A stretch of 25,586 nucleotides of DNA from a virus: the UHGV virus genome UHGV-0108017, one strand, 5' to 3'. Positions 1 through 16,199 of the stretch are shown in pieces. The position numbers and the translations under genes were made by a program. A model generated the notes under the pieces. That model did not search any database and had not been told where the DNA came from. It was given only the letters and a program-made list of their open reading frames with translations. Positions within the stretch are counted from its first letter, which is position 1; every line of letters begins with the position of its first letter.

Positions 1-54
1 CATATTGGTCATAGCGCTATCCTTCACGGCTGCATTATATAAAGAGGTAAATCA

Positions 55-67
55 TTTGATACTGCTG
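55..67 (+). repeat. left-end repeat copy 1 (TTTGATACTGCTG), candidate transposase-binding site L1
   Basis: 13-bp motif recurs at 159-171 and 201-213 in direct orientation; followed by AAAAATCCGGG, reminiscent of the Mu L1 region as recalled. Confidence 0.5.
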
Positions 68-158
68 AAAAATCCGGGAGGAAAGTGGATCAAACGGGAT
101 TTGATGGGATAAAACAAACAGTTATGACGTAAAACAGTGTTATGCGCACAACATGTGA

Positions 159-171
159 TTTGATACTACTG
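159..171 (+). repeat. left-end repeat copy 2 (TTTGATACTACTG), candidate transposase-binding site L2
   Basis: Exact 13-mer shared with 201-213; 104 bp from copy 1, close to the Mu L1-L2 spacing as recalled. Confidence 0.5.
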
Positions 172-200
172 TCGCAAAGAAAGCTAAAAACGAAAAAATA

Positions 201-213
201 TTTGATACTACTG
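201..213 (+). repeat. left-end repeat copy 3 (TTTGATACTACTG), candidate transposase-binding site L3
   Basis: Exact 13-mer identical to copy 2; 42 bp downstream of it, close to the Mu L2-L3 spacing as recalled. Confidence 0.5.
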
Positions 214-239
214 ATTTCTGCGATTTTAACGTTTTAAAC

Positions 240-281
240 AGGTTAAAAAACCAGCCGCGGGCTATTGGAATTAGCCCGCCT
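240..281 (-). terminator. putative rho-independent terminator of the repressor transcript
   Basis: 8-bp stem GCGGGCTA (257-264) / TAGCCCGC (272-279) with 7-nt loop; on the minus-strand RNA the hairpin is followed by a UUUUUU run (plus-strand A-run 245-250). Stem overlaps the stop codon at 271-273. Confidence 0.45.
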
Positions 282-995: not shown

Positions 996-1232
996 ATGAT
1001 GTCTATAAATGAAGTTGTTAAACAGGACTGGCACCCCGCGCATGTTGTCGCGGCGGTGCATGTAAAAGGTTTTACTTTACGCTCTCTGTCCATTGAAGCC
1101 GGTTTAAACCAGGATTCTTTAAAGAATGCCCTGTACCGCAAATGCCCAAAATATGAGCGCATTATTGCTGATGCTATTGGTGTTGCTCCGGAGGAGATCT
1201 GGCCCAGCCGTTACGCTCGTAAGGTGGTATAA
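996..1232 (+). CDS. ner: Ner-like DNA-binding early regulator
   Basis: ATG 996 with AAGGA 8 nt upstream. Recognisable Ner/Nlp signature (DWHPAHVVAA...GFTLRSLS...IIADAIGVAPEEIWPSRY). Stop overlaps the RBS of A. Confidence 0.8.
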   Translation: MMSINEVVKQDWHPAHVVAAVHVKGFTLRSLSIEAGLNQDSLKNALYRKCPKYERIIADAIGVAPEEIWPSRYARKVV

Positions 1233-1234
1233 AA

Positions 1235-3322
1235 ATGTTTGTATCAGTTAATGAGCTTGTAGGGCTACCAGGTATGCCGGGAACTGCGCAAGGGGTGCGG
1301 TATTCCATAAGGAAACTGGCCTCATCTGAGCATTTCAGGCGCAAACGTGCGGGTTCAAAAACCATTGAATACAGCATCGACTGCCTCCCTCCGATTACAC
1401 AACGGGCGTTACGTGAGCGACATGTAGCTCAACTGATGGCAAGCGCCCCGCAGGAGATAACTACCCAGCCTCCTGTAAAGCGTGAACGCAAACAAAATGT
1501 TGTACAGCCTGTTGAGGCATATCGCGGTTCGCCACAATTGGTAGAAGAGCGTCTGAATGCGCTTACGGAAAATCAACGTAAAGTTGCAGAAGCGCGCATT
1601 GCTCTTGTCTGTGAAGTTCTACGAATTAGCCAGGAGCCGGGATTCAGTTGTGCCAGCGCTATACGTTTTATTGTGTCGCGGTTAGCACAGGGTAACCTGG
1701 AAGAACGCCTGGAATCTTTGGTCATTACTGCTAATGCCCGTAAAGGAAAAGAGCGAACTCTGAGCGCAATTACGCTCAAACGTTGGATAGCTGCGTTTAA
1801 CAAAGCACAGAATGCCGCAGAACGACTGCTGTTACTGGCACCAGGAAAGCGCGACGAAATAAAACCGGAAGAAATTAGCTGGCTGCCTGAATTTCTGGCG
1901 CAGTATCGTCAGGCTAACGGCAGGCCTATGTCTGAAGCCTATGAGGATTTTGTCGCTGATTGGCAGCGTCGCCATGCGGACGAACCATACATGCTGGAGG
2001 TGATGCCTTCCTATGATGTTGTCCGGTATGCCATGAAAAAACTGCCGGAAGTGGTGAAACAAAAAGGGCGCGTTACCGGCAGTGAATACCGTCAGCTTGA
2101 AGGATTCACCCGCCGCGACTGGACAGCTATGCCGGTGAATTATGTCTGGATTGGTGACGGTCACGGTATGAAGCTGAAATGTGCGCATCCGGTTCACGGG
2201 CGTCCATTTTCACCGGAAGTTACGTTTGTGATCGACGGTGGAACCCGGTTTGTGGTTGGCTGGAGTCTTGATCTTGCGGAGAACGTGTTCGCTGTTGCCG
2301 GGGCGATACAACACGGCATTCGCAATCATGGAAAACCATTCCTGTATTACTCGGATAATGGTTCCGGTGAAACGGCAGATATGCTGGATAAAGAGATCGT
2401 CGGGATTCTGCCCCGTCTGGGGATTAACCACCCCACCGGTATTGCGGGAAATCCGCAGGGACGCGGCATTATTGAACGCCTGAACCGAACATTACCGATG
2501 CGTATAGCCAGGAGGTATCGCACCTATTTCGGCAAGGGTGCTGACCGGGAATCGTTGCGAGTACTTAATCGTGATCTGCGTTCAGCGTTTAATGCCCTGC
2601 AACAGGACAAGCCACTGAGCGCCCGTCAGAAAGCCGCAATGCGCGAGCTGCCGTCCTGGTCAGAACTGATTGAGGCTATCCGTGAGGGGGTGGAGTGGTA
2701 CAACAACCGCCCACATTCTGAATTGCCGATGAAACCAAACGGAAAGCATTACAGCCCGGCAGAGTTCAGAAAAAAACGCTTAGCGGAAGAAGACACTGAA
2801 ATTGAGTGGCTGAGTGATCTTGAGCTGCGCGACATGTTCCGCCCGATGGTGGAGCGTCCGGTAAGACGCTGCGAAATCCAGTGGCTGAACAATATTTACT
2901 ACGCGCCAGAGCTGCGTGATGAACATGGTCGCAAAGTACTTATCAGCTATGACATTCACGATGCCGAGCGAATTACGGTACGCCGTAAGGACGGTAGCTT
3001 TATCTGTGAGGCGATATGGAACGGCAATAAACGCGCAGCCTTTCCTGTCACGGCTGAATATCACAAACAACAGCAGCGTATTAAAGGCATGCGCAAGCGT
3101 GCTGAGGAAAAAATTCGTGATGCAGAGGATGAAGGTATTCAGATTCTGGAACACAAACAGGCTGAACCCTGGCTGGATAATGTTTATCGCCCGGTTGGTA
3201 ATACGGTAACCATCCGGCAACAGGATTATGAGGAAGATTACGACGAAGATTATGAACGCGATTTCAGGCTGGGTTTGCAAAAACTTGCAGCCATACAGGA
3301 ACAGGATGATCCGCTGGCCTGA
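1235..3322 (+). CDS. A: DDE transposase (MuA-like)
   Basis: 695 aa immediately after ner. N-terminal winged-helix-like region resembling MuA; candidate catalytic residues D308 (WIGDGH), D375 (YYSDNGSGE), E414 (IIERLNR) by inspection. Confidence 0.85.
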   Translation: MFVSVNELVGLPGMPGTAQGVRYSIRKLASSEHFRRKRAGSKTIEYSIDCLPPITQRALRERHVAQLMASAPQEITTQPPVKRERKQNVVQPVEAYRGSPQLVEERLNALTENQRKVAEARIALVCEVLRISQEPGFSCASAIRFIVSRLAQGNLEERLESLVITANARKGKERTLSAITLKRWIAAFNKAQNAAERLLLLAPGKRDEIKPEEISWLPEFLAQYRQANGRPMSEAYEDFVADWQRRHADEPYMLEVMPSYDVVRYAMKKLPEVVKQKGRVTGSEYRQLEGFTRRDWTAMPVNYVWIGDGHGMKLKCAHPVHGRPFSPEVTFVIDGGTRFVVGWSLDLAENVFAVAGAIQHGIRNHGKPFLYYSDNGSGETADMLDKEIVGILPRLGINHPTGIAGNPQGRGIIERLNRTLPMRIARRYRTYFGKGADRESLRVLNRDLRSAFNALQQDKPLSARQKAAMRELPSWSELIEAIREGVEWYNNRPHSELPMKPNGKHYSPAEFRKKRLAEEDTEIEWLSDLELRDMFRPMVERPVRRCEIQWLNNIYYAPELRDEHGRKVLISYDIHDAERITVRRKDGSFICEAIWNGNKRAAFPVTAEYHKQQQRIKGMRKRAEEKIRDAEDEGIQILEHKQAEPWLDNVYRPVGNTVTIRQQDYEEDYDEDYERDFRLGLQKLAAIQEQDDPLA

Positions 3323-3394: not shown

Positions 3395-4327
3395 ATGACC
3401 GATATTAATGATGTTTTCAACACAATTAATGCGCTGATTACTGACGGTGTAAAAACACAAAGCGCTATCGCCAAAGAAGCTGGCGTGTCGGAGGCCACTC
3501 TTTCTGAACTTCGCAAAGGCCGTTACAAAGGCGATACCGAAGGGATGCACAACAAATTACTGATGTGGCATCAGGGCTGGCAGAAAAGTCTGGAGTTGCC
3601 CGGCACCCCACAACTTGTGGAAACACAGACCCTGCGTGATTTGCGTGAACTTTTTCAGACAGTGCGTGTTATGGGGTGTATCAGCGTTCTGGTGGGTGTG
3701 CCGGGGGTAGGAAAAACCGTTGCGGCCCGTGAATACAGTAACCGCGTATCTAATACCTGGATGGTAACCCTTTCCCCTGCACACTCAACGGTGACGGAAT
3801 GTCTGCTGGAACTGGCAGACGCGCTGGGAATTGATAACCCGCAAAGGAATAAAGGCGCGCTGACCCGTGCCATTCGCAAAAAACTGAACGGTACACGCGG
3901 TCTGGTGATTGTGGATGAAGCTGACCACCTGAGCATTGACGGGCTGGAACAATTACGTGCCATTCAGGATGCCACCGGAGTCGGGATGGTATTGATTGGT
4001 AACCCCAGTCAGTTAGCCAAAGCCACACATCGGGGAACGGATGACCTTGCACGTTTGTTCAGTCGTTTCGCCAGGACAAAGCAACTACGTAAAGCCAAAA
4101 AGGCTGACGTGGTGGCAATTGCGAAAGCCTGGGGCATTGAGGGCGAAGATGAATTATCACTCATGCAGAGCATCGCGGAAAAGCCAGGCGCATTGCGTGT
4201 ATTAACTCACACGCTGAATCAGGCGTGGCTGGCAGCCAGCGGGAAAGGCGTTCCTCTGTCCAAAGGCTACATAAAAGCGGCTTTTAAAGAGGTTTACAGC
4301 AACCCGAAATTACTGAACTGGTGGTAA
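3395..4327 (+). CDS. B: transposition ATPase / target DNA activator (MuB-like, AAA+)
   Basis: 310 aa; Walker A GVPGVGKT (K107) and Walker B LVIVDEADHL seen in translation; N-terminal HTH-like region; sits directly after A as in Mu. Confidence 0.85.
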   Translation: MTDINDVFNTINALITDGVKTQSAIAKEAGVSEATLSELRKGRYKGDTEGMHNKLLMWHQGWQKSLELPGTPQLVETQTLRDLRELFQTVRVMGCISVLVGVPGVGKTVAAREYSNRVSNTWMVTLSPAHSTVTECLLELADALGIDNPQRNKGALTRAIRKKLNGTRGLVIVDEADHLSIDGLEQLRAIQDATGVGMVLIGNPSQLAKATHRGTDDLARLFSRFARTKQLRKAKKADVVAIAKAWGIEGEDELSLMQSIAEKPGALRVLTHTLNQAWLAASGKGVPLSKGYIKAAFKEVYSNPKLLNWW

Positions 4328-14661: not shown

Positions 14662-16199
14662 TGGGCCGTATTCTGGATATTTCCGGGCAGCCGTTTGATT
14701 TTGACGATGAAATGCAGACCCGCAGCGATGAGCTGGCAATGGTCATGAAGCGCACGCAGGAGCATCCTTCCAGTGGTGTGACGCCGAACCGGGCCGCGCA
14801 GATGCTGCGTGATGCCGAACGCGGTGATCTGACCGCACAGGCTGACCTGGCCTTTGATATGGAAGAAAAGGACACCCACCTTTTTTCCGAACTGAGCAAG
14901 CGCCGCCTTGCCATTCAGGCGCTGGAATGGCGCATCGCTCCGGCACGTGATGCCAGCGCACAGGAGAAAAAAGACGCCGACATGCTGAATGAATATCTGC
15001 ATGATGCGGCGTGGTTTGAAGATGCCCTGTTTGATGCCGGTGATGCCATTCTCAAGGGTTATTCCATGCAGGAGATTGAATGGGGCTGGCTGGGCAAAAT
15101 GCGCGTGCCGGTGGCGCTGCATCATCGCGATCCGGCGCTGTTCTGCGCGAACCCCGATAATCTGAACGAATTACGTCTGCGTGATACGTCTTATCACGGG
15201 CTGGAGCTGCAACCGTTCGGCTGGTTTATGCACCGGGCCAAATCCCGCACCGGGTATGTTGGCACCAATGGCCTTGTGCGCACGCTTATCTGGCCTTTTA
15301 TTTTTAAAAACTATTCCGTGCGTGATTTTGCAGAGTTTCTGGAAATTTACGGACTCCCCATGCGCGTCGGTAAATATCCGACCGGCTCCACAAACCGTGA
15401 GAAAGCCACGCTGATGCAGGCCGTGATGGATATCGGGCGACGTGCCGGTGGCATTATTCCGATGGGGATGACGCTGGATTTTCAGAGCGCCGCAGATGGT
15501 CAGTCAGACCCCTTTATGGCGATGATTGGCTGGGCAGAAAAAGCGATTTCAAAAGCCATTCTTGGCGGCACCCTGACCACAGAGGCTGGCGATAAAGGTG
15601 CACGGTCGCTGGGTGAAGTGCATGATGAGGTTCGCCGGGAAATCCGTAACGCGGATGTGGGCCAGCTTGCCCGCAGTATTAACCGTGACCTGATTTATCC
15701 CCTGCTGGCACTGAACAGTGACAGCACCATTGATATTAACCGCCTGCCGGGCATTGTATTTGATACCAGTGAAGCGGGTGATATTACGGCACTGTCTGAC
15801 GCCATTCCGAAACTGGCGGCGGGAATGCGTATTCCGGTCTCCTGGATACAGGAAAAACTTCATATTCCACAGCCGGTCGGTGATGAAGCCGTGTTTACTG
15901 CTCAACCGGTTGTCCCGGATAACGGTCCGCAGAAAGAGGCCGCATTATCCGCTGAAGATATCCCGCAGGAGGATGATATCGACCGGATGGGCGTCTCACC
16001 GGAAGACTGGCAGCGTTCGGTTGATCCCCTGCTGAAACCCGTCATTTTTTCTGTGCTGAAAGATGGCCCGGAAGCCGCCATGAACAAAGCCGCTTCATTA
16101 TATCCGCAGATGGATGATGCAGAACTTATCGACATGCTGACCCGTGCCATTTTTGTTGCCGATATATGGGGGCGTCTGGATGCCGCAGCAGACCATTGA
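14661..16199 (+). CDS. portal protein (Mu gp29-like)
   Basis: 512 aa directly after the terminase with TAATG overlap; conserved position and size. Confidence 0.75.
   Translation: MGRILDISGQPFDFDDEMQTRSDELAMVMKRTQEHPSSGVTPNRAAQMLRDAERGDLTAQADLAFDMEEKDTHLFSELSKRRLAIQALEWRIAPARDASAQEKKDADMLNEYLHDAAWFEDALFDAGDAILKGYSMQEIEWGWLGKMRVPVALHHRDPALFCANPDNLNELRLRDTSYHGLELQPFGWFMHRAKSRTGYVGTNGLVRTLIWPFIFKNYSVRDFAEFLEIYGLPMRVGKYPTGSTNREKATLMQAVMDIGRRAGGIIPMGMTLDFQSAADGQSDPFMAMIGWAEKAISKAILGGTLTTEAGDKGARSLGEVHDEVRREIRNADVGQLARSINRDLIYPLLALNSDSTIDINRLPGIVFDTSEAGDITALSDAIPKLAAGMRIPVSWIQEKLHIPQPVGDEAVFTAQPVVPDNGPQKEAALSAEDIPQEDDIDRMGVSPEDWQRSVDPLLKPVIFSVLKDGPEAAMNKAASLYPQMDDAELIDMLTRAIFVADIWGRLDAAADH

Follow-up and report, generated by a model that had tools for sequence, protein, structure and literature searches.

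The window, that is, the whole stretch of 25,586 nt analysed here from the virus genome UHGV-0108017, begins with a short piece of Escherichia coli DNA and continues with three direct copies of a 13-nt repeat (TTTGATACTRCTG), adjoined by genes for an immunity repressor, a Ner-like regulator, a DDE transposase and a MuB-type ATPase, with Mu-like late genes downstream (Table 1). Positions 38-214 very probably constitute attL of a Mu-like transposable prophage, with the three repeats as transposase sites L1-L3. Such an end with L1/L2/L3-type repeats had been proposed in a sequence-only reading of the window and is supported by the position of the host junction, copies of the motif at the right end of relatives, covariation of the motif with the transposase, and the gene context.

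Table 1. Features of the left part of the window
Feature	Position	Strand	Basis or remarks
Host DNA, part of the interior of E. coli paaY, into which the prophage is inserted	1-37		base 38 (T) may be host or phage
ATTA, left copy of the predicted 4-bp duplication	34-37		4-bp rule and empty paaY site
Left terminus of the element, 5'-TA (TATAAAGAGG...)	38-39	+	independent insertions; vB_YpM_5/6 matches start here
L1, terminal transposase site (predicted)	49-68	+	repeat family; core ATTTGATACT at 54-63 (element 17-26)
Repeat copy 1	55-67	+	TTTGATACTGCTG
Conserved spacer block between L1 and L2	68-110	+	AAAAATCCGGGAGGAAAGTGGATCAAACGGGATTTGATGGGAT, 43 bp
L2 transposase site (predicted)	153-172	+	repeat family, exact motif; core at 158-167
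Repeat copies 2 and 3	159-171 and 201-213	+	both TTTGATACTACTG
L3 transposase site (predicted)	195-214	+	repeat family, exact motif; core at 200-209
Terminator-like hairpin and T-run	247-279	-	stem 279-257, 8 pairs, then GGCTGGTTTT; hairpin GCGGGCTAATTCCAATAGCCCGC
Immunity repressor, CI-type helix-turn-helix	271-906	-	Pfam Phage_CI_repr, HTH_3; start codon of relatives at 855
Ner-like early regulator	996-1232	+	Pfam HTH_35 (E 4e-25); annotated homologues
Transposase A, 695 residues	1235-3322	+	Pfam Mu-transpos_C, weak HTH_Tnp_Mu_1
Transposase Ialpha-like region	residues 1-69		residues 2-61 match MuA Ialpha (1TNS) by sequence
Transposase Ibeta-like end-binding subdomain (predicted)	residues ~92-200 (nt 1508-1834)
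Transposase C-terminal part			rve-type DDE core, then Mu-transpos_C domain, then variable tail
MuB-like AAA+ target-capture ATPase	3395-4327	+	Pfam Phage-MuB_C (E 5e-24); AAA_22

Host junction, termini and target-site duplication

Bases 1-38 of the window are 100% identical to paaY in approximately 2,460 complete E. coli genomes. Because of this identity and of the comparison with uninterrupted paaY (locus L005), which reads ...GGCTGCATTA|TCCGCC... where the window reads ...GGCTGCATTA-TATAAAGAGG..., the window can be seen to hold the left 25.5 kb of a paaY-borne prophage, with the host/phage junction at 37/38 and the element starting at base 38. Near-identical E. coli prophages (98-99.5%) are found in ydcO, glpT, the ydcV-patD region, rlmB, an epimerase gene, mscM, tyrR and ycjO, and the matches of these prophages, at no fewer than eight other insertion sites, each start at window positions 36-43. 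TAT(A/G)(A/G/C) directly follows unrelated host DNA in the ydcO, glpT, ydcV-patD, rlmB, epimerase, mscM and alanine racemase insertions, and in five prophages both junctions of the same element could be read, as flank|TAT(A/G)(A/G)AGAGGTAAATCATTTGATAC ... GTATCAAATGATTTTGCGCGCTTTA|flank. Every independent insertion starts with TAT and finishes with TTTA, and TA is also located 17 nt ahead of L1 in loci L028, L029 and L030. The termini of the element are 5'-TA...TA-3' at both ends; TG...CA termini were not found, and no CA is present near the right terminus (GCGCGCTTTA) of the copies examined. The element is inserted at many different sites in E. coli with its repeats at the exact prophage/host junction, as are the ends of Mu-type elements. 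The sequence-only reading had considered a junction near position 52 or at the TG dinucleotides 31-32 and 57-58; these candidates were wrong because a TG terminus had been assumed, whereas the terminal dinucleotide is TA.

A 4-bp duplication of host sequence, instead of the 5 bp anticipated from the sequence alone, flanks all seven informative insertions (those with contiguous flanks): GTGA in ydcO, AGCC in glpT, TTAA in ydcV-patD, GATA in rlmB, CGAA in the epimerase gene, ATTC in the alanine racemase gene of STEC346, and TAAG in mscM, the last having been predicted from the left flank and then confirmed on the right flank. The duplication was confirmed on the empty ydcO and rlmB alleles, where the two flanks have exactly 4 bp in common; at the empty glpT site an exact-string match failed, with polymorphism in the flank. 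For the insertion in paaY, the right junction of the window copy is predicted some 36-37 kb downstream of window position 38, as ...TATCAAATGATTTTGCGCGCTTTA|ATTA|TCCGCCGCAATGC. A canonical Mu end, with a TG terminus at 31-32, near 52 or at 57-58 and a 5-bp duplication, would accord with the overall Mu synteny and with the loose alignment of L1 and the block following it to Mu bp 6-73, but is contradicted by the identity to paaY up to 37/38, the TAT and TTTA ends, the lack of CA at the right end and the exact 4-bp overlap, and is extremely unlikely.

Two other accounts of the junctions were tried and rejected: boundaries shifted so as to give a duplication of 5 or 6 bp fail for most insertions and are incompatible with loci L003, L004, L006 and L008, and TA as a duplicated target dinucleotide is incompatible with empty sites that have no TA at the junction. 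The prophage of FDAARGOS_1059 (L016/L027, NZ_CP066032.1) was left out of the tally of duplications, as its rearranged flanks derive from two different genes, ycjO and an SDR oxidoreductase gene, and share no duplication. In strain 12A (NZ_CP077479.1), matching left and right prophage ends are located about 400 kb apart. Both cases look like chromosomal rearrangements by way of multiple prophage copies or replicative transposition.

The Yersinia phages vB_YpM_5 and vB_YpM_6 (Muvirus, 98% identical) are infectious, and the paper describing them gave no analysis of their ends (PMC10434027). Their genomes were deposited as circles, in which the true right end is separated from the true left end by DNA not of phage origin: 76 bp in vB_YpM_5 (L002:4658-4733) and 125 bp in vB_YpM_6 (L001:3233-3357). 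The additional 76-125 bp are an assembly artefact of host-flanked linear genomes of the Mu type.

Probable transposase sites and their covariation with the transposase

The 13-mer TTTGATACTRCTG has exactly three exact matches in the window when both strands are searched, all on the plus strand, and their coordinates and start-to-start spacing (104 and 42 bp) are as the sequence-only reading had given them. The first begins 17 nt inward of the left boundary of the element. The 9-nt core ATTTGATAC occurs four times in the window, compared to an expected 0.23, three of the four being in the L1-L3 repeats; the fourth exact copy (15758-15766), within the portal (DUF935) gene, is probably due to chance. 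In relatives, only ATTTGATAC(T/C) is conserved, and the CTRCTG tail of the repeat is variable, with TTTGATACTGGTG, TTTGATACTACCA and TTTGATACTACGC as variants in L015-L017. That the three repeats are due to chance or low-complexity repetition in intergenic DNA, which is AT-rich in this region, has a practically negligible probability, as no exact 13-mer match arose in 100 dinucleotide-preserving shuffles of the window, and the positions of the repeats are kept across relatives in which the surrounding sequence has diverged.

The right end of the prophage lies outside the window, and right-end data were taken from intact relatives. Inverted copies of the motif, which the sequence-only reading had called for at the other end of the element, are present there: every intact relative examined, among the near-identical E. 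coli prophages and vB_YpM_5/6, has three inverted cores at its right end. The TTTGATAC cores are located at 18-25, 40-47 and 75-82 inward from the right terminus, mutually in the same orientation (...TAGTATCAAA-N25-T(A/G)GTATCAAA-N15-TATCAAATGATTTTGCGCGCTTTA). L1 of the window, at element positions 18-25, is at the same distance from its terminus as R1, and over their outermost 25 nt the two ends are imperfect inverted repeats of each other (TATAGAGAGGTAAATCATTTGATAC and TAAAGCGCGCAAAATCATTTGATAC). The right-end copies adjoin mom, about 36 kb from the left-end copies.

A sister lineage (STEC388, STEC346, Shigella SFBU1023 and a Salmonella contig; loci L019, L024 and L029) has TTCAAGATA at all six positions in place of the ATTTGATAC core, but agrees in its TAT...TTTA termini, 4-bp duplication and right-end spacing (35 and 22 bp). 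STEC346 was used for the right end of this lineage, the prophage of STEC388 being truncated by IS66, fused to another prophage and devoid of a right end. The transposase of STEC388 is 88% identical to that of the window over residues 1-50, about 50% over residues 50-200, and 92-100% over residues 200-650. Six transposases sort by motif type and not by overall similarity: those of the TTTGATAC group (the window, L028 and L030) share AIR(F/E) at residues ~142-145 and RxLSxIxLKRWxA at ~174-187, whereas those of the TTCAAGATA group (STEC346, L029 and L024) share KAIN(Y/F) and NRTISRDPLYQWVLK. L028 belongs to the TTTGATAC group despite an N-terminal region only about 50% identical to that of the window. 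Motif type covaries with transposase residues ~131-190 (nt 1625-1804). This covariation, together with an overall identity to MuA of 22%, bears out the suggestion of the sequence-only reading that the departure of the motif from the Mu consensus fits a divergent end-binding region of the transposase.

Among the relatives compared, motif type tracks neither the repressor, nor Ner, nor the terminase/packaging module. The repeats could be operators or iterons of the repressor or of Ner, controlling immunity or read-out transcription at the left end; they lie just past the terminator of the repressor gene, and phage regulatory proteins often use short direct repeats as binding sites. However, the same core is present three times, inverted, beside mom at the far end of the element, and neither protein follows the motif: the repressor of the window is 83% identical to that of L019, of TTCAAGATA type, and 56% identical to that of L015, of TTTGATAC type, while Ner is 77% identical between L028 (TTTGATAC) and L029 (TTCAAGATA). 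The repressors of L004 and L015 differ, although these two share the motif and have one and the same transposase (WP_000498156.1). Operators or iterons are accordingly very unlikely.

Sequence and model together suggest that the repeats are bound by the cognate transposase. Its catalytic core resembles retroviral integrases by sequence; Pfam hits to rve are weak, and the protein gave no hit to DDE_2 or to HTH_Tnp_Mu_2 (Igamma). In an alignment-based model, the end-binding region folds like the Ibeta subdomain of MuA, and the five top matches in Foldseek are all Mu DNA-binding domains, with weak E-values; a single-sequence AlphaFold model is confident at residues 1-70 only. The variable helix formed by residues 178-190 in the model is the likely recognition helix. 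A mechanism of transposition may be proposed that covers physical binding, the stoichiometry of the transpososome and the chemistry of cleavage. The Ibeta-like helix-turn-helix subdomain (residues ~92-200, with helix 178-190) would recognize L1-L3 through their core, ATTTGATACY, and L1-L3 would assemble with the inverted R1-R3 (cores 18, 40 and 75 nt from the right terminus) into a transpososome of the Mu type. Within the transpososome, cleavage at each end would follow the 3'-terminal A of ...TA, and the ends would be joined to target phosphates 4 bp apart in DNA delivered by the MuB-like ATPase.

Several variants of the transposase and of the prophage were noted besides. A scan of species-representative genomes identified two loci only, both of TTCAAGATA type. 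Further N-terminal transposase variants (41-73% identical) are numerous in E. coli, Salmonella, Shigella, Yersinia and Leminorella, and the variability in the alignment is concentrated at residues 21-40, 71-90 and 131-190, a pattern that suggests more end- and enhancer-specificity classes than two. In the STEC388 copy (L018:9808-12423), an IS66-family element cuts the prophage after about 9.8 kb, where it abuts a prophage of lambdoid type.

Comparison with other transposable phages

Both Mu (AF083977) and this element have three sites per end, with L1 and R1 equidistant from the termini and a distance of 22 bp from R1 to R2, and the order of repressor, ner, A and B and the late genes are also Mu-like; relatives of the element are classified in Muvirus. 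The left cores of Mu (CGAAAR) are located at 22, 127 and 167, so that the spacing of about 105 and 40 bp given for Mu attL in the sequence-only reading proves exact, compared to 104 and 42 bp here. The left-end spacing is not fixed within the lineage, however, since relatives have 106/40, 94/52 and 71/52. The two elements differ in site sequence (ATTTGATACY here, a 22-bp MuA consensus in Mu), and L2 and L3 align with neither L2 nor L3 of Mu. R3 has the same orientation as R1 and R2 here but is inverted in Mu, the termini are TA...TA here and TG...CA in Mu, and the duplication is 4 bp here and 5 bp in Mu. Thus the TG...CA termini, 5-bp duplication, MuA sites with inverted R3, and MuA-type transposase domains that characterize Mu sensu stricto (Mu, D108 and SfMu, the last being essentially Mu/D108; PMC4406740) are not those of the element.

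The nearest transposases in phage records are those of Pseudomonas VW-6B (48% identity), Klebsiella Kp4852-3 (42%) and the D3112 group (about 31%). The right-terminal 14 bp or so are homologous with the corresponding ends of the VW-6B, Kp4852-3 and D3112 types, as T(G/A)xAG(C)GCG(G)CG followed by an A/T run; only the right end of VW-6B was used, as its record is trimmed at the left (repressor gene from nt 54). These relatives have TGT termini (TGTAGAGCGGCG... and TGTAGCGCGGCG...) that are homologous to TAAAGCGCGCAAAA in this element and to TGAAGCGGCGCACG in Mu. Because of these homologies, the TA terminus looks, from the aligned sequences, like a G-to-A change at position 2 of both ends in one lineage.

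Phages of the D3112 group have three putative sites per end (PMC4378225), 5'-TGT...ACA-3' termini (PMC4378225, PMC5977238) and a 5-bp offset between the two insertion orientations (PMC5977238). Their site motifs, TTTGCA(C/T) and TTCTGGAC, are unlike those of this element, and they are siphoviruses with unrelated late genes. The 5'-TG(T) is described as a conserved feature of Mu-like phages with functional importance (PMC4378225), and Mu termini mutated at terminal positions assemble poorly according to Lee & Harshey, as cited in PMC4378225. KS10 of Burkholderia was reported without TG...CA termini, with non-Mu binding repeats, only four 15-nt sites and no flanking direct repeats (PMC2628397); its transposase is about 30% identical to that of D3112, and its ends, unlike those described here, were not defined by multiple insertions. 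Published duplication lengths are 5 bp for Mu and 6 bp for B3. According to a survey of 2021, TG-CA is conserved in all described Mu-like and B3-like phages except a TA-TA group in Leptospira, the prophages of which (WETA type) have 6-bp duplications, and the existence of TA-TA in other bacteria was left open (PMC8705779). This group, the only TA-TA group previously reported, shares with the element TA at both ends, but differs from it in having a transposase of the B3/Tn552 family, 6-bp duplications and spirochaete hosts, as opposed to Mu-transpos_C and 4 bp here; the two transposases are set apart here by their descriptions. No report of a 4-bp duplication for any transposable phage was found in a full-text literature search of incomplete coverage, and, going by this search, the combination of TA...TA termini and a 4-bp stagger is undescribed for any transposable phage. 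The junction, terminal dinucleotide and duplication length of the element depart from those of every described Mu-like phage.

It is likely that these elements represent an enterobacterial Mu-like lineage, comprising phages of E. coli, Shigella, Salmonella and Yersinia, that has TA...TA termini and 4-bp staggered strand transfer, and in which end recognition has been retargeted naturally (ATTTGATAC versus TTCAAGATA) by exchange of an Ibeta-like segment of ~60-150 residues. Terminal CA/TG and a 5-bp stagger are regarded as near-invariant in transposition of the Mu type and the retroviral type by DDE enzymes. Prophages of the TA-TA kind exist outside Leptospira, in the best-studied bacterial hosts, and 4 bp is outside the published range of 5-6 bp. 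Through the two specificity classes found in nature, a particular stretch of the protein may be tied to a particular DNA motif. Programs that rely on TG...CA and a 5-bp repeat to find the limits of Mu-like prophages will place the ends of these elements wrongly. If the proposal holds, vB_YpM_5 and vB_YpM_6, which grow on laboratory hosts, would be a tractable system for the roles of the CA terminus and the 5-bp stagger.

The spacer block and neighbouring genes

The sequence-only reading had noted a degenerate copy of the repeat at 100-108. The sequence in question, TTTGATGGG, is present there, within the conserved block at 68-110, but is a separate element and not a fourth site, because the block is shared with Mu and with L019 despite their different sites. 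The block aligns to Mu bp 24-73 (AAAAA.CCGGGAGGA.A.TGGAT....CGGGAT.TGATGGGAT), where the neighbouring Mu sites do not align, and is kept in L019, a TTCAAGATA-type element whose transposase sites differ. By analogy, it may tentatively be considered a packaging (pac) site or a site for a host factor or bending protein. The pac site of Mu presumably lies at about bp 32-54 of the left end. In Salmonella relatives (L029:1230-1275; L030:1100-1165) the CCGGGAGG...GATGGGAT block is absent, and the L1-L2 spacer holds two GTGATCTG(A/G) repeats in its place; GATCTGA also occurs in the block of Mu.

No covariation between the block and the terminase module was observed: L007 possesses both the block and the same repeats, with terminase and DUF3486 proteins only 47-49% identical to those of the window. 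This bears also on whether the repeats themselves might be pac repeats, recognized by the terminase where headful packaging starts. Packaging of the Mu type begins at the left end (PMC5977238), near which the repeats are located, but left-end packaging has no use for the inverted right-end copies, the motif covaries with the transposase segment and not with the proteins that differ in L007, and as a candidate for pac the separate block at 68-110 is preferable. A role of the repeats in packaging is very improbable, and transposase sites remain the preferred interpretation.

Downstream of the end-binding region, the C-terminal ~50 residues of the transposase (nt 3170-3322) covary with the MuB-like protein. 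The tail ...FRLGLQKLAAIQEQDDPLA is common to the window, L003 and L019, the B proteins of which are 97-98% identical; in L004 the tail is another one, ...EYLNHSLDILEQNRRKKAI, and the identity of the B protein drops to 44%. These sequences suggest that the tail of A and the B protein may be exchanged as a single module. The transposase tail of vB_YpM_6 has likewise diverged (36% identity over the last ~45 residues). At the other side of the early genes, the terminator-like hairpin, which extends into the end of the repressor gene, is directed toward the left end of the element.
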